Shown: positions 32,253 through 56,391 of the stretch, in pieces
Layout of the letters: each line of letters opens with the position of its first letter
Numbering within the stretch: the stretch's first letter is position 1
IMG/VR virus record: IMGVR_UViG_3300049811_000081
Coordinates: 46,305-110,304 of that record
Reading direction: 5' to 3' (one strand)
Length of the DNA: 64,000 nucleotides
Origin: a virus
Notes under the pieces: generated by a model
What the model was told of the DNA's origin: nothing
The model's input: the letters and a program-made list of their open reading frames with translations, nothing else
Database searches by the model: none
Made by a program: the position numbers and the translations under genes

Positions 32253-32288
32253 TTCCTTTTTAGACATATTTTATTTATATTTTATCAT

Positions 32289-36042: not shown

Positions 36043-36043
36043 T

Positions 36044-39812: not shown

Positions 39813-40642
39813 AAATAATTGTTCCAATGGCTGGATCTGGTAACCGATTTTTAGAAAAGGGTTATAGAGATCCAAAACCACTAATTAAGGTTGGAGGTAA
39901 AAAAATAATCGAATACGTTATTGATATGTTTTCTCCAAACGATGAATTTATCTTCATTTGCAATGAACTTCATAAAAAGTTTTTCGACATTGATAAATCA
40001 TTAAAGAAAATAAAGCCGTCTTCTAAAGTTTTTTCAATGCCTAATCATAAGTTAGGTCCGGTATATACGGTATTACCATTTTTTCAATACATAGATGATG
40101 ATGAAGAAGTAATAATATCATACTGTGATAATTCATTTCTATGGGATATTGAAGACTTTAAAAATTTTTTGGAAAAAGAAAAACCAGATGGTTGCATATT
40201 AACACATACAGGATTTCATCCACATACATTAAGTAAAACCAAAATGGCTTTTATTAAAGAAAAAGACGGTATTGTTGGAGAAATACAAGAAAAAGAGTGT
40301 TACACGGATGACCCAATGAGTGAGCACGCATCGACAGGAATATACTACTTTAAAAAGGGTAGTTATGTAAAAAAATATTTCAAAGAATTAATTGATTTAG
40401 ATATAAATTATAATGGTGAATATTATGTTACATTAGTTTATAATCTGTTAATCAGAGATAAGTTAAAATGTATGTACTATGATACACCATTTGTTACGGT
40501 TTTTGGTACGCCAGAAGAAGTTGAACATTTCGAAGCATGGAAAACATTGCTTAGTGAGTTGCAAATAAAGAACGAAGATGATTTAATAAATTCATACAGA
40601 TATTGGAAAAAATATTTTAAATTTTACAATGATGAATCATAG
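39809..40642 (+). CDS. Sugar-phosphate nucleotidyltransferase
   Basis: IIVPMAGSGNRF...PKPLI, SYCD, EK, GIYYF, NGEYY, FGTPEE; start at ATG 39809. Confidence 0.85.
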   Translation: MKIIVPMAGSGNRFLEKGYRDPKPLIKVGGKKIIEYVIDMFSPNDEFIFICNELHKKFFDIDKSLKKIKPSSKVFSMPNHKLGPVYTVLPFFQYIDDDEEVIISYCDNSFLWDIEDFKNFLEKEKPDGCILTHTGFHPHTLSKTKMAFIKEKDGIVGEIQEKECYTDDPMSEHASTGIYYFKKGSYVKKYFKELIDLDINYNGEYYVTLVYNLLIRDKLKCMYYDTPFVTVFGTPEEVEHFEAWKTLLSELQIKNEDDLINSYRYWKKYFKFYNDES

Positions 40643-41357
40643 AGAACGTTTATTCGAAATAAATAATATTCCCGTTTTAAATTATAAGGTGTTGAATTAT
40701 CTTTTTGAAAATAATTTAGTTCCGCAAGATGATGATTTATGGTTAGAATTTGGGACTTATGATGGAAGAAGTATTAATAAAATATCGAGATATACCGAAA
40801 AAACAATATATGGTTTTGATAGTTTTGAAGGGTTACCAGAACCTTGGGTTGGTAGGATAGACGAAAATGGTGAGTTTCATCATCATAAAGGAGTTTTTGA
40901 TTTAGGTGGTGGTCATGATAATTTTACTTTAGATAGATTTTTTGTCTACCCAAATGTAAAATTAATAAAAGGATGGTTTAAAGATACTTTACCGGTTTTT
41001 ATGGAAGAAAATGATAGACCAATTTCTTTTATTCATGTTGATTGTGACATATATTCATCAACCGTTGATGTTTTTAAATATACACACAAAAATATAAAAA
41101 ATGGGTGTATTATCGTATTTGATGAGATGATTGGTTATCCAAATTTTGAAGAACATGAGTGGAAAGCTTGGTGGGAATTTGTTGAAAATAAAAACATAAC
41201 GTTTGAGTGGATAGGAGGTAATGTTGGTGGTGTTGAAATACCAAATAACATAAATAAAAAATTTGGGGAGGGGACGCCACATTTTCACGAAATGGTTTCT
41301 CCGTCATATGAAAACGTCGGTTTAAAAATTTTACATAATCCAACATATAAATTTTAA
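40629..41357 (+). CDS. TylF/MycF-like O-methyltransferase
   Basis: LEFGTYDGRS, GFDSFEGLPEPW, KGWFKDTL, FIHVDCDIYSST, IVFDE. Confidence 0.88.
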   Translation: MMNHRERLFEINNIPVLNYKVLNYLFENNLVPQDDDLWLEFGTYDGRSINKISRYTEKTIYGFDSFEGLPEPWVGRIDENGEFHHHKGVFDLGGGHDNFTLDRFFVYPNVKLIKGWFKDTLPVFMEENDRPISFIHVDCDIYSSTVDVFKYTHKNIKNGCIIVFDEMIGYPNFEEHEWKAWWEFVENKNITFEWIGGNVGGVEIPNNINKKFGEGTPHFHEMVSPSYENVGLKILHNPTYKF

Positions 41358-41358
41358 A

Positions 41359-41805
41359 ATGGAATTAATATCACATAGGGGAAATTTAAATTCTATTAAT
41401 CCTGATTTAGAAAACAGTCCGGATTATATAGACAATGCAATATTAGAGGGTTTTGATGTTGAAGTGGATGTTAGGTGTGTTGATGGTAAATTATTTTTAG
41501 GTCATGATTACCCCCAGTACGAAATAAATGAACGGTGGTTAATAGACAGAAAAAGAAAATTATGGATCCATACAAAAGATTTTAATTCATTAAATTTACT
41601 TATACGTTCCTATACTAGAATTTTTTTTCACGAAAAAGAATCTCATACAATTATTCACAATACTAACCAAATATGGTCACATAATATTGATGAGGCTAGT
41701 GAAAATTCGATAATCCCTTTATTAAGTAAAGAAGATGTTCTCAATTGGAATAATAGGAAAAAAGTATATGGTGTTTGTTCAGATTATATAAAACTTTTCA
41801 GATGA
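41359..41805 (+). CDS. Short glycerophosphodiester phosphodiesterase/PLC-like protein
   Basis: ISHRGN, ENSP, GFDVEVDV, LGHD, WIHTK, GVCSDY. Confidence 0.8.
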   Translation: MELISHRGNLNSINPDLENSPDYIDNAILEGFDVEVDVRCVDGKLFLGHDYPQYEINERWLIDRKRKLWIHTKDFNSLNLLIRSYTRIFFHEKESHTIIHNTNQIWSHNIDEASENSIIPLLSKEDVLNWNNRKKVYGVCSDYIKLFR

Positions 41806-42446
41806 AATCATATGCACAATACGAAGAGGATTTATTTTTGATGTCATATTTTAATGACAATAAAAAACACTATGGTGTTGAGGTTGGTGCATCAGATGGT
41901 GTATTTGTGTCCCCAACAAAGTTATTAGAAGAAAATGGGTGGGAAATACTTTGTATTGAGCCAAATCCCATTTCTTTTATGGATTTACAAAAGAACAGAA
42001 AACATTGCTTACAATATGCTGTAGGTAATGAAAACATGGATAACGTTACATTTACTGTTTTTAATTTAGATAGAGATGAAAATTATCAGGATGCCATTTC
42101 TTCATTAAATCCTGATCAACGTCTAATTGATGAACACATTGGGTTTGATTTACTAATCAATTCATACCCCGAAAACGTAAATGTAAGAACGTTGGATTTT
42201 TGTATAAACCAATGGTTAAATATACTTGGAATATCTAAGGATGATTTTAAATTAGATTTTGTATCCATAGATACTGAAGGTACGGAGATGGATGTAATTG
42301 AAGGATTTGATATAGAATATTGGGATCCAAAACTTGTGTTAATTGAAAATAACTTTAATGAGGAGAGATATAGAGTAAAAATGATGGAAAGAGGATACAA
42401 ATTAATAAATATTTTTGGTATAAACGATTTATATGTTAAAAATTAG
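41802..42446 (+). CDS. FkbM-family methyltransferase
   Basis: SYAQYEED, VEVGASDG, CIEPNP, RTLD, FVSIDTEGTEMDVIEG. Confidence 0.9.
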   Translation: MKSYAQYEEDLFLMSYFNDNKKHYGVEVGASDGVFVSPTKLLEENGWEILCIEPNPISFMDLQKNRKHCLQYAVGNENMDNVTFTVFNLDRDENYQDAISSLNPDQRLIDEHIGFDLLINSYPENVNVRTLDFCINQWLNILGISKDDFKLDFVSIDTEGTEMDVIEGFDIEYWDPKLVLIENNFNEERYRVKMMERGYKLINIFGINDLYVKN

Positions 42447-42783
42447 TCTAGATGAAGCATATGTTTTTGATCTCCTTTCGATCCACGAAGTAAAATTAAT
42501 GAAAAGTGGTGGTGATAAAAGGAAACAATTAGAAAAAACGTATGATAAATTAAAAGAAGAAATTATCTCTCAAATAGGTCATGAAAAATACACTAAAATT
42601 GTTGTTAGTCCTGAGTACCATGATTTAAAAATATCAAACGCAATTGTGTTTATGTTAGTTGATAGGTCAAACCAAAGTGAACTGTCTAAACTAACCGCTG
42701 ACGCAAACTATGACAGGTATATAAAGAAAACTACGTTACAAAATAAATTTTTTGGTAATAATTTGGATGAGGTTAAATTATGA
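42433..42783 (+). CDS. Small helical protein typical of glycan loci (DUF6165-like)
   Basis: FDLLSIHEVK...LKISN...NYDRYIKK...EVK pattern. Confidence 0.55.
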   Translation: MLKISLDEAYVFDLLSIHEVKLMKSGGDKRKQLEKTYDKLKEEIISQIGHEKYTKIVVSPEYHDLKISNAIVFMLVDRSNQSELSKLTADANYDRYIKKTTLQNKFFGNNLDEVKL

Positions 42784-43517
42784 GTGATAGCATAAGTTTT
42801 TTATTTGGAGGTAGATTAGGTGATTTTATTCATGGATTGTGTGTCTGTAAATACAACTGGGAGCTCACAGGGAAGAAATGTGACATCTATATGGATAACA
42901 TAGGGGATATATTCCAAAATGGGTTAGAACCCACCTATAAGGATTTAAAACCCATTTTAGACAAACAGGAGTGGTGTAATTCATTCGAGATATACAATAG
43001 AACCACCCATATTGACATAAATGTGGTTAATTTCAGGAGAAGTCCTCTCTTATGTAGAACAAATTGGATTGAAATTTATTTCAAAACTTTTTTCAACATC
43101 GATAACCCACCCAAGGAATATTCATGGTTAACTCTAGAAAAAGATGAAAAATATAAGGACATGGTTCTTGTTAATAGAAACATGAACTCTATGAGTGACA
43201 ACACAACGGAAATGTATCGAAAAAAATTAAAAAAATATGATAGCGTGTCATTCATCTGTTTTGACAAGAAACAATATGAAAATTTTAAATTGAAAGATGA
43301 ATACCCCGTAATTTATGTTGATAACCTCTATGACTTTGCGGTTAAAATCAATAGTTGCAAATTATTTGTTGGGAACCAATCAGCGCCGATGGCGTTAGCG
43401 GTTGCATTAAATGTCCCAAGATATACGGAACTATATGGAAAAATCGATCATATTCATTATATGAAAGATATTGTTTATTATCAAAATTATGATTATTTTA
43501 TTGGGGATAACTATTGA
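42780..43517 (+). CDS. GT9-like (GT-B) glycosyltransferase
   Basis: GRLGDFIHGL; INSCKLFVGNQSAPMALAVALNVP. Confidence 0.7.
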   Translation: MSDSISFLFGGRLGDFIHGLCVCKYNWELTGKKCDIYMDNIGDIFQNGLEPTYKDLKPILDKQEWCNSFEIYNRTTHIDINVVNFRRSPLLCRTNWIEIYFKTFFNIDNPPKEYSWLTLEKDEKYKDMVLVNRNMNSMSDNTTEMYRKKLKKYDSVSFICFDKKQYENFKLKDEYPVIYVDNLYDFAVKINSCKLFVGNQSAPMALAVALNVPRYTELYGKIDHIHYMKDIVYYQNYDYFIGDNY

Positions 43518-43519
43518 TC

Positions 43520-44605
43520 ATGAACATATCTTTTGTACTTGCGGTTTACAATAATTTAGAGTTAACTGTTAATGCTTATAATGATTTAAGAAAAAAGTAC
43601 CCCAATGTTCCTTTAATTATAACAAGTGGAGGATCTACGGATGGCACCCATGAGTGGTTAAAATCTCTAACCGATAGTAATTTAATATTTGATATTGAAG
43701 AAAATCGTAGAACGTTTTCTCAAAATTTTAATAAAGGAATAAAATTAGTTCAAACAGAAAAATTAGTACTAATACATAATGACATGATCCTTGGGGATAT
43801 GTTTTTGGAAAACATAGAAAAACACTCATCTCCCAACAGATTATTATCTTATACAACGATTGAGCCATCGATATATTCCACACACATAAGACCTGGTAAA
43901 GTAATCCTAAATTTAGGTCACGATTTTAACGATTTCGATAATACGAATTTTAATCTATACGTCAATCAACACAAAGAAACGTGTACATTGTACGATGGTG
44001 CATCATTCTTTATGAGTGGTTACAAATCATTATTCGAGAGTGTTGGGTATTTTGATGAATTTTCTTTTATTCCTTCATTTTGTGAAGATGATGATTTTTT
44101 AATCAGAACAAAACTCAATGATTTTGAATTAAAAACAATCACTTGCGCAATTGTATATCATTTTGTATCAAAAACATCAAGATCATCTTCATCATATGAA
44201 AACGAATTAAACTCAAATAGAAACTTCATAAGAAAATGGGGAGCTCCGATAAAAACGTTTCAGGACATGAAATATTGGGTAAATAGTGATTTTTGGGGAT
44301 ATAATCCTAAAAAAATTGAACTACTTAAGTCTGACTTTGAAAATGTCCCCGATATCGAACCGTTCTTTAAAAAAATAGTGATTGATAACGGATATGATTT
44401 CGGATATGTAAAAGAAGAACAGAAAAAAACGAATTACGACGTAAAAGGTAAGTTCATCGATCCCATTCAATGTGATGTTACCATCCATTTAATTGGAAAA
44501 TTAACAGTATCCAATTTAGATTTCTTTTCTAAAATGCAGTTTGTTTTACCTAAGTATAGTAAGGGTGTGTACAAACACGAAAACTTAATGATTAGTATCC
44601 ATTAA
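43520..44605 (+). CDS. GT2 glycosyltransferase
   Basis: ISFVLAVYN, GGSTDGT, FSQNFNKG, IHNDMIL, GYFDE...FCEDDD, YHFVS. Confidence 0.88.
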   Translation: MNISFVLAVYNNLELTVNAYNDLRKKYPNVPLIITSGGSTDGTHEWLKSLTDSNLIFDIEENRRTFSQNFNKGIKLVQTEKLVLIHNDMILGDMFLENIEKHSSPNRLLSYTTIEPSIYSTHIRPGKVILNLGHDFNDFDNTNFNLYVNQHKETCTLYDGASFFMSGYKSLFESVGYFDEFSFIPSFCEDDDFLIRTKLNDFELKTITCAIVYHFVSKTSRSSSSYENELNSNRNFIRKWGAPIKTFQDMKYWVNSDFWGYNPKKIELLKSDFENVPDIEPFFKKIVIDNGYDFGYVKEEQKKTNYDVKGKFIDPIQCDVTIHLIGKLTVSNLDFFSKMQFVLPKYSKGVYKHENLMISIH

Positions 44606-46738
44606 TAATTTTTCGATTTGAGTTATCACCATTTCAGAAGTGATTTGTTTTGAACACTCAAATTGTCTGTTCGTGTTTTTATGTACAGGACACCAATTCC
44701 AGTCTCCCGCATCAAAATTGTAATTATGCCAACATCCGTGACAAACATCTTTATTTATTACTCGATAAATCCCGTTAGTTGGTTCAAGGTATTCATCGGT
44801 AAATCCTGATATGAGTATTGTTGGTGTTCCTCCAGCCCAAGATAACCAACTTAAACCACTACTTACACCAATGAAGAATTCGGATTCTTGCATCACCTTT
44901 AATATACCAAGTAGGTCGGTTCTTTCTTGTTGAACAACACCTGTTGGGTTTTTATTTCCCATATAACCATCTTCTTCGTTTGATAATAGTCTAACCTCAT
45001 ATCCTTTACCATTTAAATAATCAACAACTTCTTGCCATCCATTTTCATTATTCCAATATTTGCATTGTGCTGTTGAGTGTATTCCTATACATACTCTTTT
45101 GCGTTTATTCCTACCTAATTTAGGAAGTCTTGGTTTGAGTTCTTCATATTGTAATCCTAAAATATCCGAAGCAATCTTCATTAAAGGTTGTTTATATGGA
45201 TCTAATGGATGTGCGGTTTCGTCAAATCCATCTTTTGTTTTAAACAACCCTATTCGATACTGAGCATATATGTCATGTACAACCTCATTTGGTTTAATGA
45301 AATTAATTTCCGGATATTGGGTTTCAAATAAGTTGTTATGGAATGTGGAACAAATAACGTAACAATTTTTTTCTTTCCTAAATTGTTCTACATACGGTAT
45401 CCAAGCAATCGTGTCTCCGACAGATTTAGATTCCAGTGAAATCAAAATACGTTTTCTGGTCGGATCAAAAATAAAATCTTTCTGAAATTTTTTAGATTTA
45501 ACACTAATTTTCCAATCAACATAATATTTTAAATTAGCTCTGTGCCAATGATTGTTTTTTGATTTAACCCTATAAACTTCAAGATTTCTTTTTGTATCAG
45601 TAAAAGAAATATCAAATATACCCAATTCATCATCAATGATTTCAAAAAATGGTCCGTCAATAAAGTGATAATTAATTTGTTTTGGTGGTTTTGTCATAAT
45701 TTCTTTGTTTTTCCAATGTAGTATATTTTGTCTGGTGTCCCTAAAATCAGTTATGTCTTTTAATAAAAATTGTGAATAAACTTCAACACCGAGATAATAT
45801 ATGTTAACTATTTTAAATTTTTCGTATTTACCTAGATTTTGTAACGTAAATTTATTTACACCTAAAGTAATAAATTTTTTAATATCACCATATGTTATTT
45901 CCAACAAATATTGTTTTTCTTTATCATCGGTTTCGGTACAATTATTAATAAAAAGATATAATTCATCATCATGATCGGCAGCACATAAAACATCAAACGA
46001 AATACCATTCCTGTCTATCCCTCCCCTATTCCAAACAGCAACTTTATTAAATTCATTATCGTTTGGTATGTAGTCCGTTATTTTTATATTTTGGGTCAAA
46101 TTGGTTAAACAAGTATAGAAAACGTGCTCTAAAGAAAATCCTGTTGGTCTGTTATAAAAATATTCTTTTTTAGTTTTAATCTGATCAACTAAGTTAACCG
46201 CGACATCGGTTCTTATTGAAAAAATATATGTTGCACAATATGGTTGTTCAACATTGTGTTTAGTAGAATTTTTGTGATACTCATAAATAACAGCATCCCA
46301 ATATTCTAATTCTTCTAAAAAGGCTTGTCTATATTGTACGTGATCGGGTAAATTATCATACTCCATAAAATGGATATATTTTTTACCCAAATACTTGGCA
46401 AAATTAAACGAATTTCTCATGGTCTCCCATATGGCATAATCATGATGAAACTCATATGTTGTCTCAATTTTGAAATCGTTTGTTTCAAACCAAATACCAC
46501 TACCAACACCAAAATCATTATATTCTTCCAATAACAATAAAGGATTGTTTTTATCATAGATGAAATAATCTACCATATTCTGTATTTCCACAGAAACGGT
46601 TTGGTGTCCACATAACAGTATATCAACATTAAACTCTCTTAATCTTTTTAATAATTGAATTAAATATTCCTTTTTTTCTTCTGTATTAATCCAATAATCA
46701 ACAATAAAAATATGATCTTTCCGATTTTCTTCCATCAT
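44585..46738 (-). CDS. Aah/TibC-like autotransporter O-heptosyltransferase (BAHT) homologue with extra N-terminal domain
   Basis: C-terminal half: FIDGPFFEI, KYYVDWKI, SKSVGDTIAWIPY, YRIGLF, STAQCKYWNNENGW, FFIGVSSGLSWLSW, LISGFT, and four-Cys iron finger CHGCW...WCP...FECS. Confidence 0.85.
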   Translation of the reverse strand: MMEENRKDHIFIVDYWINTEEKKEYLIQLLKRLREFNVDILLCGHQTVSVEIQNMVDYFIYDKNNPLLLLEEYNDFGVGSGIWFETNDFKIETTYEFHHDYAIWETMRNSFNFAKYLGKKYIHFMEYDNLPDHVQYRQAFLEELEYWDAVIYEYHKNSTKHNVEQPYCATYIFSIRTDVAVNLVDQIKTKKEYFYNRPTGFSLEHVFYTCLTNLTQNIKITDYIPNDNEFNKVAVWNRGGIDRNGISFDVLCAADHDDELYLFINNCTETDDKEKQYLLEITYGDIKKFITLGVNKFTLQNLGKYEKFKIVNIYYLGVEVYSQFLLKDITDFRDTRQNILHWKNKEIMTKPPKQINYHFIDGPFFEIIDDELGIFDISFTDTKRNLEVYRVKSKNNHWHRANLKYYVDWKISVKSKKFQKDFIFDPTRKRILISLESKSVGDTIAWIPYVEQFRKEKNCYVICSTFHNNLFETQYPEINFIKPNEVVHDIYAQYRIGLFKTKDGFDETAHPLDPYKQPLMKIASDILGLQYEELKPRLPKLGRNKRKRVCIGIHSTAQCKYWNNENGWQEVVDYLNGKGYEVRLLSNEEDGYMGNKNPTGVVQQERTDLLGILKVMQESEFFIGVSSGLSWLSWAGGTPTILISGFTDEYLEPTNGIYRVINKDVCHGCWHNYNFDAGDWNWCPVHKNTNRQFECSKQITSEMVITQIEKLLMDTNH

Positions 46739-46747
46739 TATAAAATT

Positions 46748-49474
46748 TTACTCTCTCCAAAAATATAACATTTGTAAATTGTTGTCTGTACCTAAAAACA
46801 TTATAAACGATCTAAATCCGAGACTGTTTAATCTATTTATCAAGTTGTTTCTATCGTTTTCATTATAAAAAAAATGTGCATGATGATACTCCATCGATAT
46901 GTTTTTAATCTTTAAAAGATTTTCATCACTAATACCAGAAAATATATCTAATTCTGACCCTTCCACATCTACTTTTAAGAAATCAATTTTATCTATCAAA
47001 TTGGATTCAAAAAGATAATCAAGTGTATAGGTTCTTGCTTTATAAAAATTTTGTCCAAATTCTTTATTTAAAAAATTAGAACCACCTAAATGATCACTTT
47101 CGTAAAAGTACCCCCGACCAACTTCGCTATGGACACCCGCATTAAAAAGAATTGATCTATCATCAGAATTTAATTGTAATAGTTTGAAATATCGCTTATC
47201 TGGTTCAAAAGATATAACTTTAGATGCTCCTTGTGAATATGCCCATCTGTTGAAGATACCGATATTTGCTCCTAAATCAACAACAATGTCACCATCATTT
47301 ATTCTTTTGGTTCTGTGTAAATAATAGTCTTGTAGATTAAAAATTTCGTGATATATACAATAATCCCAACCGTATTGATCCGCGACCTGTAAAGAAGATC
47401 CTTCAAACCCTTTTATTTCCCCCAAATTTTTACAAACATTTTCTTCGGTGAAGAAATATTCAGAACTGTGAAAGTTTTTATCTCTTTTTAATTTAATAAA
47501 ATTTATCATTTTTTCCGAAACCTCGGAATTCTTATTTCCATGAAAATATATGATATTGGATTTATCTTTTGGTATGAACTGATATCCATAAATTTTATTA
47601 AAGTTGTAGGGACCGTTTTTCACCCAAAAAGTAAAAAAATCTTTTAAATTATTTGCAGTGTAACCAACATCCCCATCATATGATGATGTGTCAAAATTTG
47701 ACAACGGTAAATATTTTTTAAACCCATATTTCCATCTTAAAAAATTATCAATACCCTCATCATTCCATAGGAGATATTTTTTGTAATCAATTAAGGGAAT
47801 TTGCTTATATACCTCAATTATTTCATTAAACCACCACTCACATTTCTTATTGTAGATGTACATACAGACATGGGCATAGGGATCTGATTTTTTCACCTGA
47901 AATAATTCACACAGTTTTTCATTAAAGAGTTGAGTTTCTTTTTTATCATTATATTCACCGAAAAATTCTTTTTGTACATGGATGTCAGATATTGGGTAAT
48001 TATCAATTTCTTTCATGTATTTGTTTATGTTGTCGATATTGTAGTTAACAATTACATCCCCATCAATCCATACATAATTTTCATAATCTTCTTTTAGTGA
48101 TTCTATACATGCATACTGTTTCCAATACCATCTATCATGTTCGGAATACTTTGGTGGGTTGATTGTTTTCTTGATTAAGCATGGGTAATCAAATGGAACA
48201 TCACAATCCACACCGTATACTATAATTTTATGATTGGAAAATTCATTTATGGATTTAACTAATTTTTCGATTACAGGCATATATCCAATATTACCCGTTG
48301 TTACAAAAACAAAATTATTATCGGAATTTATTTTTAATAAATGTTCCGATACTTGTGAAGCGATTTTTCCCCAATTAAATTCTTCATGTATTTCCTGACT
48401 TTCTTTTATTGATCTTTTTTTATAGAGATCGTGGGTTTCATAAACCAATTTCATTTTGTATGATAGGTCTTGGAAATCGGGTTCAATATAATTTCCAACA
48501 AAATTAGGGTCTTGTTTTGTTGCTGGTACCTCATCTAAAACACTAACAGGTATTCCCTTACCATTTGCAAACTGTAATTGTGCTCCCCAATTTGAATATA
48601 TTGATGGGGTTCCGCAAGACATTGCCTCAATTAATGGCAAATTCCATCCCTCACTTCTGGCACAAGAAACAAAAACATGACCTTTTTTTAAATAGGTGAT
48701 ATAGTCTTCTCTTTTTAAAAAATGTAAAACTTTTACTTTATCATTGATTAATCCATAATGATCTAACCTTTCTTCGGTTGAATTAAATCCGTCATTTGCA
48801 AACATATTATCTGCGGATACGAGTAATTGTACGTTATTATTTTGTTTAAATGTTTCAATAAAGGTCTCAATGATTTCCTTTGTTGATTTTCTGTATTCCC
48901 ATCTACCAAACAATAAAAAAGTGAATTTTTCAAACTGTTCTATGTTTTCTTCTGGTTTAAATATGTTAACATCAACCCCCTCTGGTACTACAAATATTTT
49001 ATCTTTATCATAACCTTGTTTAATTAAATTATTTTTTTGCCATTCACTCGGCACCCAAAATTCGTCTAATGTTTTTATTTGATTAAAAAAGTTGTATGGG
49101 TATTCGGTAGTTTCCCAAACATTGTATCCGATAACATAACCGTCGTATTTGTCATAAAAATACCTATGGTTAACATCATTGAGTATAATGTGTAGGTCTG
49201 GTTTAAAATCAAAATTATACCCATATAAAGGAAAATCTGTTACCGTACCGTCTGAGTTATATAATGTTTGTAAAATCAACATATTCCTCATTTCTTCCGT
49301 CATATACGGTTCTTCATCATGAGCATACTGATTATACCCCTTCCATGTTTTACCGACGGTGTAATTTCTAATTTTTACGGTATGGAATTTATTTAAGGCT
49401 GTGAAAAAAGATCTTGCATGGTTATTATACCCAGTATCCCCAATAAATGAGGTGTGTACCAATATTTTCATCAT
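46748..49474 (-). CDS. Three-domain GT4 + GT-A-like + FkbM methyltransferase protein
   Basis: TGYNNHAR...RSEGWNLPLIEAMSCG (GT4); VWIDGD...WNDEG...YFHGNK (GT-A-like); VVDLGANIG...FEPD...FLKVDVEGSE (FkbM). Confidence 0.85.
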   Translation of the reverse strand: MMKILVHTSFIGDTGYNNHARSFFTALNKFHTVKIRNYTVGKTWKGYNQYAHDEEPYMTEEMRNMLILQTLYNSDGTVTDFPLYGYNFDFKPDLHIILNDVNHRYFYDKYDGYVIGYNVWETTEYPYNFFNQIKTLDEFWVPSEWQKNNLIKQGYDKDKIFVVPEGVDVNIFKPEENIEQFEKFTFLLFGRWEYRKSTKEIIETFIETFKQNNNVQLLVSADNMFANDGFNSTEERLDHYGLINDKVKVLHFLKREDYITYLKKGHVFVSCARSEGWNLPLIEAMSCGTPSIYSNWGAQLQFANGKGIPVSVLDEVPATKQDPNFVGNYIEPDFQDLSYKMKLVYETHDLYKKRSIKESQEIHEEFNWGKIASQVSEHLLKINSDNNFVFVTTGNIGYMPVIEKLVKSINEFSNHKIIVYGVDCDVPFDYPCLIKKTINPPKYSEHDRWYWKQYACIESLKEDYENYVWIDGDVIVNYNIDNINKYMKEIDNYPISDIHVQKEFFGEYNDKKETQLFNEKLCELFQVKKSDPYAHVCMYIYNKKCEWWFNEIIEVYKQIPLIDYKKYLLWNDEGIDNFLRWKYGFKKYLPLSNFDTSSYDGDVGYTANNLKDFFTFWVKNGPYNFNKIYGYQFIPKDKSNIIYFHGNKNSEVSEKMINFIKLKRDKNFHSSEYFFTEENVCKNLGEIKGFEGSSLQVADQYGWDYCIYHEIFNLQDYYLHRTKRINDGDIVVDLGANIGIFNRWAYSQGASKVISFEPDKRYFKLLQLNSDDRSILFNAGVHSEVGRGYFYESDHLGGSNFLNKEFGQNFYKARTYTLDYLFESNLIDKIDFLKVDVEGSELDIFSGISDENLLKIKNISMEYHHAHFFYNENDRNNLINRLNSLGFRSFIMFLGTDNNLQMLYFWRE

Positions 49475-50882: not shown

Positions 50883-52184
50883 TTATTCAACAACAACATC
50901 AATAAAATAAGAAGATTCATTAAAAGTGTCAGTAGGATATACAACAGAATTAGAATACGTATATCTACCATTACCGGCATAACCTGTATTACTTTGTGGC
51001 GCAGTAATTATACCGTTGGCAATAGATGATGTGAAATAATCAGGTGCCAAACAATATTCCGCCCTATTAGCAAGAATAAATGGCATCAATACCGAAACAA
51101 CATATGTGGTATTTGCACTTATTGATACCGAAGATGTTAATTCCATTCTTTGCCAACCGCTTGTTGTTTCACCAGTAAAGGTAATTTGGGCCAATCTAAC
51201 ACTACCCGAATCTGTCCATAAAGCACCTATATGTGTATTACCATCCATTTGTGAATCTTTATAAAATCTGATTGCTTTTACAACACAATTTTGACTTGTT
51301 CTAAATACTGTACCTAGATTAACACCTGTACCCGAACCGTCCTCTTCAAATGCATATGGTGGAGTGGCATTACCAAATATTGTATATTCTGAAGGTGTTG
51401 GGGTGGGTGTTGGAGTTGGTGTCGGGGTAGGTGTTGGGGTAGGTTGTGCGAACGCCTCTTTTACCTCCAAAATTATTGTTCCGTGATATTGATCTGTAGG
51501 TGCGGAAAGACCCATTGTATATGTTGTTCCTGAAGTTGTACCCGACTTATAATAATTATAAATAGTATTTTTAGTTGTATAAAAACTATAAGAGGTCTCT
51601 GTTATTGGGGTGCTGCGATAAACTCTGGATGAACCATCTCGTGGAAACCAGTCATTTGTCACCGCAACAAAAATACTATCATTTTTTGTTGATGTAATAT
51701 CTACACTTGGAGCTTCTTGGGCACTTTTACTAACAAAAGATCCAGTTGTTGCATTACTAAATGCATATACCGCCATTGTTAATGTTCCATCATCTGTTGG
51801 CATATCGAGAGAACATGTTATTGTCATAGTTCCACCATTGGTAAAATTACCTAACCACATTGTTGTGTATGGTCTTGATTCAACAAATATTCTACCTTTT
51901 TCATTGAGCGAAAAACTTGGGATTGTGGTAAAATTTGGTGGTACAAATGAAAACCCATAAGCATCTGATGCGTCATTATTACTAACTGTTACAACAATTA
52001 GTGAATCTGCATCCAAAGATGTGAGTTGTAAACTGCAAGTAGGGCTGGTGGAACCAATCGACTGTGTTGATCTTACCGCATAAGATGTTAGTCCAAAATT
52101 TTGAAATCCTTGACTTAAAATTTGAGTACCTATCAATGTAAAACCATTAATTTGGGTCGATCCATTAATTACTACCGCAGCCAT
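50883..52184 (-). CDS. Tail-associated protein: beta domain + (PT)n linker + C-terminal DUF4082
   Basis: PTPTPTPTPTPTPTPTP linker; GVNLGTVF...AIRFYK...HIGALW...ETTSGWQ...ISANTTYVVS...YFIDVV. Confidence 0.78.
   Translation of the reverse strand: MAAVVINGSTQINGFTLIGTQILSQGFQNFGLTSYAVRSTQSIGSTSPTCSLQLTSLDADSLIVVTVSNNDASDAYGFSFVPPNFTTIPSFSLNEKGRIFVESRPYTTMWLGNFTNGGTMTITCSLDMPTDDGTLTMAVYAFSNATTGSFVSKSAQEAPSVDITSTKNDSIFVAVTNDWFPRDGSSRVYRSTPITETSYSFYTTKNTIYNYYKSGTTSGTTYTMGLSAPTDQYHGTIILEVKEAFAQPTPTPTPTPTPTPTPTPSEYTIFGNATPPYAFEEDGSGTGVNLGTVFRTSQNCVVKAIRFYKDSQMDGNTHIGALWTDSGSVRLAQITFTGETTSGWQRMELTSSVSISANTTYVVSVLMPFILANRAEYCLAPDYFTSSIANGIITAPQSNTGYAGNGRYTYSNSVVYPTDTFNESSYFIDVVVE
51393..51443 (-). repeat. 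Pro-Thr dipeptide linker repeat
   Basis: About 8 PT units with synonymous variation. Confidence 0.9.
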
Positions 52185-55100
52185 TAAATCTTTCTTTTAT
52201 TTTATTAATTTCTTCTTTTAGTTCTTGAATTGATTTAATTAATATCGATACCATTTTTGTATATGATATCGATTCTGGATTACCATCTCTATCAATTTTA
52301 ACCAAATCAGGATAAATTTTGTATAGTTCCTCCGCAATCAATCCGTATTCTAAACCATTACCCATTGATGAGTCTATCCATTTAAATGTAACAGGGTTTA
52401 ACATCATCACCGTATCTAATTGATTTTCCAATGGGTTAATATCCATTTTAAATCTTTTTGTTGAGGTTTCCGTTAGTGATGTTGCCACTAATGATCCCGT
52501 CAATTGAACCGTATTTGTTCCTTTGATAAATGTTAAATTATTTGATCCGCTAAACGCGCCTCCATCATTAAATTGAATGGTTGTTGTCGCACCTCCAGGT
52601 GAACCACTACCACCCGTTGCACTAATAGATGCTGTTCCACTAGTTACAGTTGCGGTAATATTTGTTGTAAAATTTAAATGTGTTGCAGTTCCTTGTGATA
52701 CACCATCATCCAATATTGTTAATTCACCTCCCACACCACTTGTTCCTGATGTTCCACTAGAACCTCCAGGTCCACTTGTTCCTGATGATCCCGATGATCC
52801 ACTTGTTCCAGATGATCCTGATGAACCGCTTGTACCAGAAGAACCTGACGATCCTGAACTACCGGAAGAACCCGATGACCCTGAACTACCAGATGAACCA
52901 CTTGTACCAGAAGATCCTGAACTACCGGAAGTTCCACTAGTTCCCGATGTTCCTCTTGTACCGGATGAACCACTACTACCAGAAGAACCTGAAGATCCGC
53001 TAGATCCAGAACTACCTGATGAACCACTTGTACCAGAAGTTCCGGAACTACCTGATGAACCACTTGTACCAGAAGATCCTGAACTACCAGATGATCCTGA
53101 TGATCCACTACTACCAGAACTACCAGATGAACCACTAGTACCAGAACTACCCGAAGATCCTGAACTACCAGATGATCCTGATGAACCAGAAGTTCCGGAA
53201 CTACCTGATGAACCAGAAGTTCCGGAACTACCTGATGAACCAGAAGTTCCAGATGATCCACTACTACCAGAACTACCTGATGAACCAGAAGTTCCGGAAC
53301 TACCTGATGAACCAGAACTACCAGATGATCCACTACTACCAGAACTACCAGATGATCCACTACTACCAGAAGTTCCACTACTTCCGGAAGATCCTGATGA
53401 ACCAGAACTGCCGGAAGTTCCACTTGTTCCAGATGTACCTCCGGTTCCAGAAGAACCACTACTACCAGATGATCCACTTGAACCGCTACTACCAGATGAT
53501 CCCGAACTTCCAGAAGTTCCGGATGATCCTGAACTACCAGATGAACCACTTGTACCAGAACTACCCGAAGAACCTGAACTTCCAGACGAACCACTTGTTC
53601 CTGATGTACCAGAACTACCCGCTTGACCCGCAGCTCCTTCTAAATTTGTTGTCCACGAAGCATATGTTCCAGACCCAAATATTGAGGTTACCTCAACAGT
53701 TAATTCACCCGTTGTTGGATTGTATGAAACAATGTCACCAGTAAATGAATTATTTACATCATATGCAATTAAAACTCCTTGAGCAATAGTATATGAAAGT
53801 TGTGTTGTGGCTGTTAGTGTTACATTATTACCAATTACTAATGAATTTAAATTTATTGAGGTGTTTGATGTTCCATTATATACTGGTGATAATCCTGATG
53901 TTCCGCTGGTACCTGATGTACCTCTTGTTCCAGATGATCCTGAACTGCCAGATGAACCACTACTACCTGACGATCCCGAACTACCAGACGATCCGCTTGT
54001 TCCTGACGATCCGCTTGTTCCTGACGAACCACTACTACCAGAAGATCCTGAACTACCAGACGATCCGCTTGTTCCTGACGATCCTGATGTACCACTTGTA
54101 CCAGAAGATCCTGAACTACCAGACGATCCTGATGTACCACTTGTACCAGAAGATCCTGAACTACCAGACGATCCACTACTACCTGATGAACCACCGGTAC
54201 CCGAACTACCAGATGATCCACTCGTACCGGAGGAACCCGACGAACCAGAACTTCCTGATGAACCACTAGTACCAGATGTTCCATTAATTCCGCTCGTACC
54301 AGAACTACCGGAAGAACCACTACCTCCCGATGCACCCTCTAGGTTAACCTCCCAATAACAAAATGTATTAGTGCCACCTATTGTACTTACTTCAACAACA
54401 AAGGCACCTGTGTTTTCATCATATGAGACAATATCACCGGTAAAATAATCATTCACGGAATTTGCAACCAAGATATGTTGCGCAAGTGTATATGAAAGAC
54501 CTGTTGTACCAGTAAAGGATGTATTTAAACCAATTGTTAATCCGCTTAATGTTAAACATGTATCGGATATTCCATCATACTTTGGGGATATACCAGAAGA
54601 TCCGCTTGTTCCTGATGTTCCGCTAGAACCTCCAGGTCCACTTGTTCCTGATGAACCAGAAGATCCGCTAGTACCGGAAGAACCTGACGAACCACTACTA
54701 CCAGAAGATCCACTACTTCCCGAACTACCAGATGATCCCGATGATCCACTTGTACCAGAACTACCAGATGATCCACTTGTACCAGAAGTTCCCCTTGTTC
54801 CTGACGATCCAGAACTTCCTGATGATCCACTTGTCCCTGACGAACCTGAGCTACCAGAAGATCCTGATGATCCACTTGTACCAGAAGAACCACTTGAACC
54901 AGAACTACCTGATGATCCACTTGTACCAGAAGTTCCTCTTGTTCCTGACGATCCAGAACTTCCTGATGAACCACTACTACCTGATGAACCACTTGTGCCA
55001 GAAGTTCCCCTTGTTCCGGATGATCCTGAACTACCAGATGATCCCGATGATCCACTTGTACCAGAACTACCAGATGAACCACTACTACCAGATGAACCAC

Positions 55101-56391
55101 TTGTACCAGAAGATCCTGAACTACCAGACGATCCACCACTACCTGATGAACCAGAAGTTCCTGATGTTCCTCTAGTTCCCGATGATCCTGAACTACCAGA
55201 AGATCCTGATGAACCACTACTTCCAGACGATCCAGAACTTCCAGAAGAACCACTTGTACCAGAAGTTCCTCTTGTTCCTGATGAACCACTTGTCCCTGAC
55301 GAACCTGAGCTACCAGAAGAGCCGGAAGATCCTGATGAACCGCTTGTACCAGAAGTTCCTCTTGTTCCTGACGATCCAGAACTTCCTGATGAACCACTTG
55401 TACCAGAACTACCAGATGATCCACTTGTACCGGATGTTCCTCTTGTACCCGAAGAACCACTACTACCAGATGAACCACTACTACCAGATGAACCCGATGA
55501 ACCACTACTTCCAGAAGAACCACTTGTACCAGAAGTTCCTCTTGTTCCTGATGATCCAGAACTACCAGATGAACCACTTGTACCAGAACTACCAGATGAA
55601 CCACTTGTACCAGAACTACCAGATGATCCTGAACTACCAGAAGATCCTGATGAACCACTTGTTCCGCTCGTACCGGAAGAACCAAATGCAATTAACCACG
55701 AGTTTCCATCGTATCTATATACCGAATCGGTTATTCTATCGTAATGGAGTTGCCCCTCTTCAATACCAACAGGTAACCCATTTCCTTTGGGTAAAACAAA
55801 CGAACCCGATATCTTAACGGAACCAGTGAACCTATGGGTATCATCCATAGTATTACCAAAAATGTGAGAACCCGATGCAAAGGATTGTGTTACAATTAAA
55901 ACCGAACTACTAACAATATATTGTCTTGCGGTAACGTCTCCTGTTACGGTTAGAGAACCCAAAATTTTGGTGTCGGTATTTACTACAAAACCATTTGTTG
56001 GTGATATTGATGCGGACGCACTTCCGCTCGATATCATCGATAAATTAAGACCTGTAACCCCACTTGCTGGAATATTATATAATCTAGATCCGTCTCCAAT
56101 AAATAAACCACTTACAGTAGATCCCGCAATCTCAACACTACCACTAACAATAAATGAACCCGTTACTTGAACGTTGTTGGTTGTTGCAACAAATGACCCC
56201 GTTCTAACCCATACGTCATCTGGTGTTATACCAGACAATATTGCGTCACAAATAGCAATTCCACCACAATAAACTTCTTCCGCATGTATTGAGGTTAGTT
56301 GTGTATCAAAGCTTCCGATATTAACAGTATATCCAGAAGGGATATTTTCTGTGTTAATTTGCGTCCAATTAATTTTCTGAAGACCACCCAT
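52165..56391 (-). CDS. 1408-aa tail fibre-like protein with Gly-Ser/Thr-Ser repeats and C-terminal peptidase S74 intramolecular chaperone
   Basis: Three G-X-Y repeat blocks; C-terminal TSTKRFKMDINPL...LNPVTFKW...YGLIAEEL...SISYTKMVSILIKSIQEL. Confidence 0.88.
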   Translation of the reverse strand: MGGLQKINWTQINTENIPSGYTVNIGSFDTQLTSIHAEEVYCGGIAICDAILSGITPDDVWVRTGSFVATTNNVQVTGSFIVSGSVEIAGSTVSGLFIGDGSRLYNIPASGVTGLNLSMISSGSASASISPTNGFVVNTDTKILGSLTVTGDVTARQYIVSSSVLIVTQSFASGSHIFGNTMDDTHRFTGSVKISGSFVLPKGNGLPVGIEEGQLHYDRITDSVYRYDGNSWLIAFGSSGTSGTSGSSGSSGSSGSSGSSGTSGSSGSSGTSGSSGSSGSSGTRGTSGTSGSSGSSGSSGSSGSSGSSGSSGSSGTRGTSGTSGSSGSSGTSGSSGSSGSSGTRGTSGTSGSSGSSGSSGSSGSSGTSGSSGTRGTSGTSGSSGSSGSSGSSGSSGSSGSSGSSGTRGTSGTSGSSGSGGSSGSSGSSGTSGSSGSSGSSGSSGTSGSSGSSGSSGSSGTRGTSGTSGSSGSSGSSGSSGSSGTRGTSGTSGSSGSSGSSGSSGTSGSSGSSGSSGSSGTSGSSGSSGSSGTRGTSGTSGSSGSSGTSGSSGSSGSSGSSGSSGSSGSSGSSGTSGSSGSSGTSGPGGSSGTSGTSGSSGISPKYDGISDTCLTLSGLTIGLNTSFTGTTGLSYTLAQHILVANSVNDYFTGDIVSYDENTGAFVVEVSTIGGTNTFCYWEVNLEGASGGSGSSGSSGTSGINGTSGTSGSSGSSGSSGSSGTSGSSGSSGTGGSSGSSGSSGSSGSSGTSGTSGSSGSSGSSGTSGTSGSSGTSGSSGSSGSSGSSGSSGTSGSSGTSGSSGSSGSSGSSGSSGSSGSSGTRGTSGTSGTSGLSPVYNGTSNTSINLNSLVIGNNVTLTATTQLSYTIAQGVLIAYDVNNSFTGDIVSYNPTTGELTVEVTSIFGSGTYASWTTNLEGAAGQAGSSGTSGTSGSSGSSGSSGSSGTSGSSGSSGSSGTSGSSGSSGSSGSSGSSGSSGSSGTGGTSGTSGTSGSSGSSGSSGSSGTSGSSGSSGSSGSSGSSGSSGSSGSSGTSGSSGSSGSSGSSGTSGSSGSSGTSGSSGSSGTSGSSGSSGSSGSSGSSGTSGSSGSSGSSGSSGSSGSSGSSGTSGSSGSSGTSGTSGSSGSSGSSGSSGSSGSSGSSGTRGTSGTSGTSGSSGSSGTSGSSGSSGSSGSSGSSGSSGSSGTSGSSGSSGTSGSSGSSGTSGPGGSSGTSGTSGVGGELTILDDGVSQGTATHLNFTTNITATVTSGTASISATGGSGSPGGATTTIQFNDGGAFSGSNNLTFIKGTNTVQLTGSLVATSLTETSTKRFKMDINPLENQLDTVMMLNPVTFKWIDSSMGNGLEYGLIAEELYKIYPDLVKIDRDGNPESISYTKMVSILIKSIQELKEEINKIKERFNGCGSN
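52738..53625 (-). repeat. Coding repeat block 3, (G-S/T-S)n, ~98 triplets
   Basis: Ends in GTSGPGGSSGTSGTSG, as block 1 does. Confidence 0.95.
53893..54327 (-). repeat. Coding repeat block 2, (G-S/T-S)n, ~48 triplets
   Basis: Lies between two homologous ~85-aa globular spacers. Confidence 0.95.
54592..55683 (-). repeat. Coding 9-nt-period repeat block 1, (G-S/T-S)n, ~120 triplets
   Basis: Gly every third residue; eight GTRGTSGTS punctuations by manual count. Confidence 0.95.

Follow-up and report, generated by a model that had tools for sequence, protein, structure and literature searches.

The stability of collagen has been accounted for by imino acids, by Lys-Glu/Asp salt bridges and, in some organisms, by glycosylated threonine (PMC11923368), and recent peptide work questions the need for Pro and Hyp (PMC13673506). 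Among the closest described systems is EPclA of the E. coli O157:H7 prophages (PMC3368898), in which long Gly-X-Y tracts of a trimeric phage fibre are flanked by non-collagen trimerising/globular modules. According to the summary given in PMC11923368, proteins of the EPclA type depend on Pro at X and on charged residues, which make up about 22%. The fibre described here shares the general layout, but its 822 repeat residues include just two Pro and 11 charged residues (10 Arg and 1 Glu, with neither Lys nor Asp).

The window, i.e. the whole stretch of 64,000 nt that was analysed, comes from an uncultured phage with an estimated genome size of about 330 kb. The product of its 1408-aa fibre ORF (Table 1) is most likely one chain of a homotrimeric virion fibre, the fibre itself most likely being a tail fibre or receptor-binding appendage, and we are highly confident that a real trimeric fibre is encoded. 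When triplets were counted as runs with Gly at each third residue, 274 of them were found in three unbroken blocks (GSS 180, GTS 70, GTR 10, others 14). An earlier note on this DNA had described about 265 triplets with Gly at every third position, Ser or Thr at X, Ser at almost every Y, only two Pro, and about ten GTR triplets each followed by GTSGTS. This picture is borne out by the exact figures: X is Ser in 66% and Thr in 30% of the triplets, Y is Ser in 93%, the number of Pro is exactly two, and GTSGTS comes next after ten of the ten GTR triplets. Both Pro sit in GPG as part of the motif GTSGPGGSSGTSGTSG, one close to the C-terminal end of block 1 and the other to that of block 3. Each of the ten Arg stands at Y, the position where Arg is known to stabilise collagen, and punctuation by Arg is hardly seen outside this fibre protein.

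Table 1. Features of the fibre locus and its surroundings (positions in the window).
Feature	Positions	Strand	Basis or proposed role
Fibre gene, ORF open for 1408 aa	52165..56391	(-)	
N-terminal segment, fibre aa 1-52	56236..56391	(-)	probably attachment end
Module A, fibre aa 53-236	55684..56235	(-)	conserved globular or intertwined module, about 150-180 aa
Collagen-like block 1, aa 237-602, 122 Gly-(S/T)-S triplets, 8 GTR	54586..55683	(-)	triplet count and Pfam
Knob 1, 83-aa beta-barrel module between collagen blocks	54337..54585	(-)	similarity to knob 2
Collagen-like block 2, aa 686-835, 50 triplets, 1 GTR	53887..54336	(-)	triplet count
Knob 2, 83-aa six-stranded beta-barrel	53638..53886	(-)	AF2 model
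Collagen-like block 3, aa 919-1224, 102 triplets, 1 GTR	52720..53637	(-)	triplet count
Ser/Thr-rich segment, aa 1225-1309	52465..52719	(-)	precedes predicted cleavage site
Peptidase_S74 intramolecular chaperone, aa 1310-1408, Ser1310 and Lys1315	52168..52464	(-)	Pfam PF13884
433-aa protein with C-terminal DUF4082	50883..52184	(-)	Pfam DUF4082, E 5e-33
908-aa GT4 glycosyltransferase and FkbM methyltransferase	46748..49474	(-)	Pfam; candidate glycan-extending/capping enzyme
717-aa protein, aa 393-711 = TibC-type (BAHT) protein-serine heptosyltransferase domain	44585..46738	(-)	phmmer; candidate fibre-glycosylating enzyme
Sugar-nucleotide and glycosyltransferase cluster (GT4 x2, GDP-mannose 4,6-dehydratase, C-methyltransferase, WavE, kinase-aldolase fusion, nucleotidyltransferase, TylF, FkbM, GT2)	29024..44605	(+)	possible donor supply

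The repeats match the Pfam family Collagen (PF01391) with 338 bits against a cut-off of 27.2, and two traits of that family are present: Gly at each third residue in long tracts without interruption, and an adjoining trimerisation/registration domain, here the C-terminal S74 domain, with globular modules flanking every block. Apart from the two Pro, the usual collagen stabilisers (imino acids at X/Y and Lys-Gly-Glu/Asp salt-bridge triplets) do not occur in the 822 repeat residues. In PF01391 proteins imino acids and salt bridges are a usual property rather than a strict requirement. Ser is encoded by all six of its codons (TCT 121, TCA 126, AGT 119, TCG 35, TCC 19, AGC 15) and Gly by GGT (152) and GGA (122). 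The repeats contain 77 distinct 9-mers, and the identity of tandem repeats at the DNA level is only about 60-80%. A recent DNA slippage array is ruled out by these three properties; given the codon diversity, it is selection on the protein that has kept the three-residue period.

The family extends to 54 distinct homologous fibres from 21 loci, found on uncultured phage contigs of up to 336 kb, which together hold 8,761 triplets in 183 runs (the longest of 138 triplets) with 15 Pro in all. The earlier note had looked to the homologues as a check, with free breaking of the three-residue register counting against its reading. The register is kept: only 16 short breaks were found, every other interruption being at least 17 aa long and mostly a whole domain, and the repeat lengths of close orthologues differ by whole triplets. 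The two variable positions are clearly distinguished, with Thr (4110 at X vs 78 at Y) and Val/Ile (242 vs 27) preferring X, and Asp/Asn (93 vs 1189), Ala (86 vs 470) and Arg (6 vs 28) preferring Y. Such asymmetry would not be expected of a disordered linker. Judged by sequence comparison, the Gly-X-Y register is under selection and conserved family-wide. Since only a minority of the homologous GXY fibres ends in S74, this domain is not needed for such shafts.

For fibre aa 1-52, comparison with Pfam and the PDB returned no matches; among the fibre paralogues of relatives, it is only the first whose N-terminus matches residues 4-51. Module A has 522 homologues in the protein database and recurs in relatives also within the shafts, between GXY blocks; its AF2 monomer model is poor (pLDDT 64.5). 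The two knobs are 52% identical to each other and belong to a family of 957 cluster representatives, whose fold was modelled on the sequence of knob 2 (AF2 pLDDT 96.5). The best solved match of this model is a baseplate protein of phage JBD30 (Z 8.0, rmsd 2.4 Å over 74 aligned residues), and a Foldseek search gave no matches at E <= 0.001. As modelled, the 83-aa knob is a widespread beta-barrel module. Among the best 150 of the 957 representatives, 108 carry at least 10 GXY triplets, and 68 of these 108 have at least 10% Pro, with P/A at X and T/Q at Y. The triple helix is favoured by this setting of the knob, in other proteins, amid ordinary Pro-containing collagen repeats.

At the C-terminus, Ser1310 and Lys1315 are the predicted catalytic dyad, as in endosialidase. 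These residues, five positions apart, align with SDRRIK of the long tail fibre of phage S16 (6F45), STKRFKMDI lying on SDRRIKKDI. Peptidase_S74 (PF13884) was detected with 47.6 bits against a cut-off of 22 (E 2.1e-12, aa 1310-1365 of 1408), so the C-terminal S74 chaperone named in the earlier note stands. To judge from its position relative to this domain, the segment aa 1225-1309 would form the distal tip once the fibre has matured. The gene of the DUF4082 protein overlaps the 3' end of the fibre gene by 20 nt, and no homologues of its product were found in any related locus; it could be a partner or tip protein of the fibre.

Candidates for modification of the fibre are encoded close by. The C-terminal domain of the 717-aa neighbour aligns with residues 58-386 of TibC (4RAP) with an E value of 2.8e-53 (phmmer), as against 0.01 only for WaaC-type LPS heptosyltransferases. 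It keeps the Asp of the GDxxxW motif, where the D110A mutant structure 4RB4 has Ala, and four of the four iron-finger Cys columns (TibC 339, 342, 358, 370); the roles of these residues were described for TibC, which puts heptose on Ser and not on Thr (PMC4358343). The N-terminal half of the phage protein (about 390 aa), preceding the point where the alignment begins at TibC residue 58, is different; enzymes of the BAHT family are marked by a beta-barrel at the N-terminus and by assembly into a dodecameric ring. By domain the protein is a TibC-type protein-serine heptosyltransferase, its activity being predicted. No heptose-nucleotide pathway, such as would supply the ADP-heptose used by BAHT enzymes, was recognised among the Pfam matches of the sugar cluster in the window.

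The TibC-like enzyme was found in 10 of 12 records with GXY fibres and in 0 of 15 with coiled-coil fibres, and full-length GT4-FkbM orthologues in 10 of 11 GXY-type records of at least 100 kb and in 0 of 21 non-GXY records, many of the records in these counts being fragments (24-70% complete). One GXY-type record (70% complete) carries neither enzyme. Coiled-coil relatives lack both, including those in which the syntenic sugar cluster is far from the contig ends. This co-occurrence is confounded by descent, since GXY and coiled-coil phages may be two clades. In eight of eight other genomes the order is GT4-FkbM, a gene of ~220 aa, the TibC-like gene and, directly downstream, a GXY protein, which in seven of the eight has an S74-like end; two genomes encode both enzymes as one fusion protein. 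In most relatives 30-60 kb separate the big tandem fibre genes from the enzymes, which have only one smaller GXY gene next to them. TibC-like genes of other phage lineages have as neighbours a Ser/Thr GXY protein of 1467 aa (L086) or mucin-like proteins of poly-Ser/Thr (L091, L095). The cultured Microcystis phage Mel-JY01 encodes a GT4-FkbM-TibC-like fusion next to a Ser-rich structural protein with two copies of module A. As that neighbour is free of GXY, the target of the enzyme could be Ser-rich modules and not the repeats. Meanwhile, homologues of the GT4, GT2 and C-methyltransferase genes of the sugar cluster occur in related phages, and GT4/GT2 genes are found even in sister phages whose fibres are of the coiled-coil type. 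The suggestion that neighbouring enzymes glycosylate the fibre thus gains indirect support from a close TibC/BAHT relative, which co-occurs with Ser/Thr collagen fibres in related and unrelated phages, and loses most of the 20-kb sugar cluster, which is not specific to such fibres.

With a relative of an enzyme that glycosylates adhesin serines encoded nearby, the fibre can be regarded as a probable sugar-coated collagen, the chemistry of which is so far unstudied. The explanation that we slightly favour as a whole is a clamped, O-glycosylated Gly-(Ser/Thr)-Ser triple-helical trimeric fibre. Taken separately, a collagen-type helix of the repeats seems likely and glycosylation of the fibre by the TibC-like enzyme fairly likely, while a need of the sugar for the helix is proposed tentatively. 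Such a fibre would resemble beads on a string: an N-terminal anchor, module A, three triple-helical rods parted by the two beta-barrel knobs, and a distal tip. Computed at 0.286 nm per residue, the rods would measure about 105, 43 and 88 nm, 235 nm in total, in keeping with the 200+ nm estimated earlier. The S74 domain would gather three chains, nucleate folding from the C-terminus and then cut itself off at Ser1310. Two other means would hold a helix that has neither imino acids nor Lys-Glu/Asp salt bridges. Each block has a globular module at either end, and these modules may act as clamps; polyglycine, when its strands are clamped at the two ends, takes up a collagen-like helix for which side chains are unneeded (PMC13673506). 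In addition, the exposed Ser, above all the near-invariant Ser at Y, may be O-glycosylated in the host cytoplasm, the first sugar being added by the TibC-like serine glycosyltransferase of the phage and then extended and methylated by the GT4-FkbM enzyme. A peptide cited in PMC11923368, (Gly-Pro-Thr)10, is a random coil until galactosylated. Somewhat unlikely in our view is the strongest form of this idea, according to which a natural collagen triple helix would owe its stability to glycosyl-serine alone: in this widespread phage family, rods of 0.1-0.4 micrometre, built solely of Gly-(Ser/Thr)-Ser, would fold only once a TibC-type enzyme of the phage has glycosylated the Ser at Y within the bacterial cytoplasm.

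The same helix might do without sugar, if the clamps, Arg at Y and the hydration and hydrogen bonding of Ser/Thr hydroxyls sufficed at low lake temperatures; the glycosyltransferases would then serve other virion proteins, the small adjacent GXY protein, host surface glycans or DNA. The clamped polyglycine helix speaks for this account, as do the distance of 30-60 kb between the big tandem fibres of relatives and the TibC-like gene, the presence of most of the sugar cluster in sister phages devoid of collagen fibres, and the GXY-type record without both enzymes. We nevertheless hold it unlikely: the TibC-like and GT4-FkbM genes go together with GXY fibres and are missing from coiled-coil relatives, TibC-like genes of unrelated phages again lie beside Ser/Thr-rich proteins, and the unglycosylated peptide cited in PMC11923368 stays unfolded.

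Less probable still are non-helical, heavily O-glycosylated mucin-like tethers (bottle-brush), with the period as a by-product of the expansion and contraction of a 9-nt unit. It is true that Gly/Ser-rich sequence is a classic flexible linker, that block lengths vary freely among orthologues and that aperiodic poly-Ser/Thr tails, which must be disordered, occur in other phages that have TibC-like genes. However, a disordered linker needs neither exact third-residue Gly over 8,761 triplets nor a strong X/Y asymmetry, codon diversity points to selection on the protein and not to recent slippage, and elsewhere the knob is flanked by ordinary collagen repeats. The least probable arrangement is one of polyglycine-II/polyproline-II helices lying side by side without the collagen supercoil, perhaps associating laterally between fibres, for which the snow-flea antifreeze protein, the gp38 adhesin of phage S16 and an untwisted C1q-peptide assembly are the models. 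The composition is indeed rich in small residues, untwisted PPII trimers exist (PMC11463431) and imino-poor sequences relax the collagen twist (PMC13673506). Yet known PGII bundles are antiparallel, short and turn-rich, whereas the longest run has 122 triplets in this fibre and 138 in relatives, without any turn motif; being joined at either end, the chains should run parallel, and a tight PGII lattice would be crowded by Thr, Val and Ile at X.

This family of Ser/Thr collagen-like fibres provides natural and very long sequences without imino-acid or salt-bridge stabilisers, and with a specific candidate enzyme at hand the question of whether sugar or clamps alone can keep a collagen helix together becomes testable with recombinant protein. 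Should sugar prove to be the only thing that holds the helix, a third chemistry of collagen would join those of imino acids and salt bridges, and the autotransporter heptosyltransferase family would gain a new class of substrate. Were the fibre glycosylated, the adhesin-glycosylating BAHT family would reach phage virion proteins, cytoplasmic protein O-glycosylation would be a structural step in phage assembly, and a Pro-free, enzyme-decorated collagen scaffold could be of interest for biomaterials. Fibres of hundreds of nm with interchangeable tips, in phage genomes of up to about 336 kb, also bear on host finding by large lake phages.

Several known systems are approached by the clamped, glycosylated fibre proposed here. 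In BclA of the Bacillus anthracis exosporium and in Riftia cuticle collagen, repeats rich in a hydroxy amino acid bear an O-linked sugar which replaces hydroxyproline; the present repeats are alike in their hydroxy-rich character, and the sugar would be a further likeness. Both of those collagens, however, keep Pro at X and Thr at Y, whereas here X is Ser/Thr and Y is Ser, nearly without Pro, and the candidate enzyme, unlike theirs, is a cytoplasmic TibC-type Ser transferase. Bacterial collagens usually have Thr at Y; with Thr at X and Ser at Y this order is reversed here, so the repeats may follow another structural logic. The known substrates of TibC and Aah are beta-helical adhesin passenger domains, with no collagen repeats among those of TibC, while collagen repeats are the substrate proposed for the phage enzyme. 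In the TibC-TibA and Aah-AIDA-I pairs of E. coli (4RAP/4RB4; PMC4358343) the enzyme gene lies, as in this locus, beside that of a Ser-rich repetitive structural protein; the phage enzyme differs from TibC by its extra N-terminal half and by its fusion to GT4-FkbM in some relatives. The S74 domain resembles that of endosialidase tailspikes and phage long tail fibres (PF13884; 6F45) in its C-terminal location and in the Ser, followed by Lys five residues on, at the domain start. In those fibres it follows a triple beta-helix, while here it follows a collagen-type shaft and its autocleavage is predicted. Finally, phage-encoded glycosyltransferases of mycobacteriophages decorate virion proteins (Freeman et al. 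2023, as cited in PMC12619734), as is proposed here; as described in that citation, their glycans sit on the C-terminal tails of capsid and tail-tube subunits, whereas the target proposed here is the shaft of a fibre, where the sugar would have a structural role.

The fibre gene is a single open frame, the product of which carries 274 Gly-X-Y (GXY) triplets in three blocks, delimited by a script that requires Gly in each third position. By type, the triplets comprise GSS (180), GTS (70), GTR (10) and 14 others, with position X occupied by Ser (66%) or Thr (30%) and position Y by Ser (93%). Among the 822 repeat residues there are two Pro (both in GPG), one Glu and no Lys or Asp; all ten Arg are found at Y, and GTSGTS directly follows GTR in ten of ten cases. 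The Pfam Collagen model scores 338 bits against a cut-off of 27.2, and in the alignment Ser1310 and Lys1315 of the Peptidase_S74 domain fall on the SDRRIK motif of the phage S16 long tail fibre (6F45). The description of a nearly Pro-free collagen-like fibre with an S74 chaperone, made in the earlier note, was thus borne out in every particular, and its estimate of a repeat span above 200 nm agrees with the predicted 235 nm (105, 43 and 88 nm for the three blocks, at 0.286 nm per residue).

Coordinates of the fibre, its parts and other genes in the window and in other records (L, loci of other phages; G003, a complete 336-kb relative)
Location	Strand	Feature	Remarks
8259-9611	-	RtcB-type RNA ligase	PHROG 1075, E 1e-80
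26827-27648	-	LAGLIDADG homing endonuclease	
38397-39812	+	Uridine-kinase/PRK-like P-loop domain fused to class II aldolase domain	Nucleotidyltransferase next
44585-46738	-	TibC-like gene	717 aa
46748-49474	-	GT4-FkbM gene	908 aa
50883-52184	-	433-aa protein, C-terminal DUF4082	20-nt overlap with fibre gene stop
52165-56391	-	Fibre gene	1408 aa
Fibre aa 53-236		Module A	
Fibre aa 237-602		GXY block 1	122 triplets, unbroken
Fibre aa 686-835		GXY block 2	50 triplets, unbroken
Fibre aa 919-1224		GXY block 3	102 triplets, unbroken
Fibre aa 1310-1365		Peptidase_S74 domain	Pfam
L003:9974-14200		GXY paralogue	~60-aa tip
L002:9986-14347		GXY paralogue	~60-aa tip
L030:13596-17342		GXY paralogue	~60-aa tip
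G003 C1:292000-294105		TibC-like orthologue	In-frame TAA
G003 C1:286358-287455		Second, stand-alone TibC-like copy	378 aa, 5 kb from first
L091:2-1195		Extreme mucin-like tract	In a protein near a TibC-like gene; poly-Ser, poly-Thr, SVSESD and TTPPP repeats in L091 and L095 together
L095:1113-3329		Extreme mucin-like tract	In a protein near a TibC-like gene
L099:3065-8430		1226-aa protein and preceding Ser-rich structural protein of Microcystis phage Mel-JY01	PP395634

At the DNA level, all six Ser codons are used (TCT 121, TCA 126, AGT 119, TCG 35, TCC 19, AGC 15), both unconnected codon families among them, and Gly is encoded by GGT (152) or GGA (122). A clean tandem array or recent slippage was ruled out by this diversity, by the 77 distinct 9-mers of the repeat DNA and by the matches of only about 60-80% returned by Tandem Repeats Finder. 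The three-residue period has therefore been kept at the protein level through much synonymous change.

A search with the first 236 aa of the fibre yielded 522 homologous proteins, and a scan of IMG/VR led to 70 related loci, the longest of their contigs measuring 336 kb; among the records searched whole, three are 95-100% complete and 316-336 kb long. Pro-free Ser/Thr GXY fibres occur at about thirty of the 70 loci, usually as 2-4 tandem paralogous genes, the largest protein having 436 triplets and the longest unbroken run 138. The remaining loci encode the same module with coiled-coil shafts and zero GXY. When 54 distinct GXY fibres were pooled (8,761 triplets), a strong X/Y asymmetry was observed, which argues for a defined three-residue structure over a featureless linker.

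Residue counts at positions X and Y in the 54 pooled GXY fibres
Residue	X	Y
Thr	4110	78
Ser	4069	6856
Val	138	16
Ile	104	11
Asp	68	665
Asn	25	524
Ala	86	470
Arg	6	28
Pro	4	11

Free breaking of the register by homologues had been named beforehand as the result that would speak against a collagen-like fold. The homologues hold the register: the 8,761 triplets contain only 16 short breaks (fourteen insertions of two residues and two of six), all other interruptions being at least 17 aa long and mostly whole domains. Block lengths of close orthologues differ by whole triplets. All 279 indels inside GXY blocks are multiples of three, a count that is partly circular since a register-breaking insertion ends a block by definition; hence the argument rests on the short breaks. 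The fibre itself looks mosaic in comparison with related loci L004, L005, L018 and others, residues 4-51 matching the N-terminus of the relatives' first paralogue and residues 53-236 later paralogues. Relatives have two to four GXY fibre genes in tandem after glutaredoxin, versus one on the contig of the window, where the fibre gene is the only GXY gene.

The two 83-aa segments between the blocks are 52% identical to each other and are modelled with high confidence as a six-stranded beta-barrel (pLDDT 96.5). Foldseek revealed no match to this model at E <= 0.001, and the best matches of a wide structural search were domains of phage baseplate/tail-tip proteins (JBD30, Z 8.0; GP4, 7.0; Chi, 6.9); on these middling scores, the knob is classed no further than as a small beta-barrel of a generic type that phage tails often contain. 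At E <= 0.001 its family comprises 957 cluster representatives. Ten or more GXY triplets are present in 108 of the top 150, and these 108 include 68 collagen-like proteins of the usual Pro-containing kind (X = Pro/Ala, Y = Thr/Gln) and 15 that are Ser/Thr-only. Because the same bead is threaded on conventional collagen strings elsewhere, the Ser/Thr tracts probably adopt the same fold as conventional collagen; this is our main comparative argument. Module A is a bead too, recurring inside the shafts of relatives with GXY on both sides. For the N-terminal 236 aa, no PDB sequence match was found, and only weak leads with scores of 0.88-0.90 came from the ESM Atlas, pointing to Mtd_N and to a trimerisation region of phage tails. 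The AF2 monomer model of module A was too poor (pLDDT 64.5) for a structure search; intertwined trimers often model poorly as monomers.

Homologous fibres possess 2-6 GXY blocks and differ in their C-terminal tip, for which several alternatives exist, S74 among them. When the homologous GXY fibres were screened by BLAST and by a crude search for the motif, S74 ends were seen in just a few; S74 was therefore rejected as a hallmark of the family and is regarded as a swappable end module. Many GXY paralogues share a ~60-aa tip with the motif YTNDLHLSN...GNWTIQEGE and no S74, others bear a third kind of tip, and the ends look interchangeable. Variable blocks with alternative tips are the pattern expected of diversifying receptor-binding fibres.

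The source contig (110 kb, IMG/VR) is 33% complete according to CheckV, so that the whole genome would measure about 330 kb. Megablast of the 20 kb around the fibre gene against GenBank phages produced one 58-nt repeat match only. Upstream of the fibre gene lie glutaredoxin, thioredoxin, AAA ATPase, NusG and Dam methylase genes, in an order kept in relatives. Downstream, on the same strand, follow in turn the 433-aa DUF4082 protein, two unknown genes, GT4-FkbM and the GT9-family TibC-like enzyme; a 15-kb sugar cluster on the opposite strand converges on these genes. The DUF4082 protein, which has no homologue in the 70 related loci, could be a tip or adhesin partner binding the fibre after S74 release, and the kinase-aldolase fusion may represent an unusual sugar-activation route for donor supply.

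Residues 393-711 of the TibC-like enzyme match residues 58-386 of the TibC chain with an E-value of 2.8e-53, against only 0.01 for LPS heptosyltransferases. The phage enzyme retains the four cysteines of the iron finger as well as the Asp that is replaced by Ala in the D110A crystal. In the cytoplasm, TibC attaches heptose to the Ser but not the Thr residues of a repetitive adhesin (PMC4358343). GT4-FkbM gave weak GT4 matches only in the PDB. When whole records were compared, 10 of 12 with GXY fibres had the TibC-like gene versus none of 15 with coiled-coil fibres; full-length GT4-FkbM orthologues (54-60% identity) occur in 10 of the 11 GXY-type records that reach 100 kb versus none of 21 others, and Pfam Collagen hits in 11 of 11 versus none of 10. 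The absence of the enzymes from coiled-coil-type records is not mere truncation, because the GT4/GT2 cluster which these records share lies well inside the contigs.

In all eight other genomes, GT4-FkbM is followed by a ~220-aa gene, the TibC-like gene and one for a GXY protein of 448-1049 aa, the latter having an S74-like end in seven; in two genomes (G005 and G021) a single 998-aa chain combines both enzymes. The window lacks the small GXY/S74 gene found after the TibC-like gene in these eight relatives, and its large fibre gene is located 2.7 kb upstream of GT4-FkbM. The earlier proposal that neighbouring enzymes glycosylate the fibre was narrowed to these two genes: the idea of the whole sugar cluster serving the fibre was dropped because a local synteny test found none of the window's sugar-cluster genes within 10 kb of homologous tandem fibre genes. 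The few nearby GT2 homologues adjoined coiled-coil fibres, and fibre types could not be told apart by general searches for the GT1 and GT2 families.

TibC-like genes were also found on other, smaller phage contigs. In L086 the gene immediately precedes that of a 1467-aa Ser/Thr GXY protein, at loci L087-L089 a fibre that combines GXY (Thr at Y) with S74 is encoded nearby, and at L091 and L095 so are proteins with mucin-like poly-Ser/Thr tails. The L095 tract ends a protein resembling, by eye, a run of repeated Ig-like units. In the cultured cyanophage Mel-JY01, a protein annotated only as FkbM methyltransferase matches the TibC-like domain in its C-terminal part (50% identity), which suggests a fusion of the same kind as in G005 and G021; its gene directly follows that of a "structural protein" that is rich in Ser and contains module A twice, and this case shows that the target of the enzyme need not be the GXY tract itself. 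Taken together, these genomic associations make a good circumstantial case for Ser-rich fibre proteins as the targets of phage TibC-like enzymes, the clade comparison being confounded by common descent and no donor pathway having been recognised among the Pfam hits of the sugar cluster.

In the proposed assembly, three chains would be joined at the C-terminus by the S74 domain, a collagen-type helix would zip up one block after another in the N-terminal direction, its register set anew by each bead, and S74 would then cleave at Ser1310. The stabilisers that a recent survey names across all collagens are imino acids and Lys-Glu/Asp salt bridges (PMC11923368). The fibre repeats are devoid of both, which leaves two sources, i.e. 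clamping at both ends and O-glycosylation of outward-facing serines. Clamping at both ends suffices for a short polyglycine helix in peptides (PMC13673506), and a sugar-free clamped helix, the enzymes serving other targets, is considered unlikely. O-glycosylation would help to stabilise the helix: (Gly-Pro-Thr)10 folds only if galactosylated (PMC11923368). In other collagens, Y holds hydroxyproline or galactosyl-Thr. The near-invariant Ser at Y is a natural candidate glycosylation site.

A disordered glycosylated brush is more doubtful still, the three-residue periodicity and X/Y asymmetry weighing most against it. An untwisted polyglycine-II bundle (PMC11463431) is quite improbable, as the long, turn-free, parallel runs of the repeats weigh against it. 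The ten Arg at Y also form ten built-in trypsin sites that would reveal the state of folding. In host-guest peptides, Arg at Y matches hydroxyproline as a stabiliser of collagen.

The literature search found no paper on phage collagen made of Ser/Thr only or on TibC-like enzymes of phages. The "moraphage" paper (PMC12619734) deals with aquatic phages of large size that encode several glycosyltransferases. The fibre family makes the question of minimal collagen-helix stabilisation bench-testable. Collagen-like phage fibres, S74 chaperones, glycosylated-Thr collagens and TibC are already known separately; the search found no paper on their combination in a Gly-(Ser/Thr)-Ser shaft that is Pro-free and nearly charge-free, travels with a phage TibC-like enzyme and is widespread in uncultured phages, the genomes of which reach about 336 kb.
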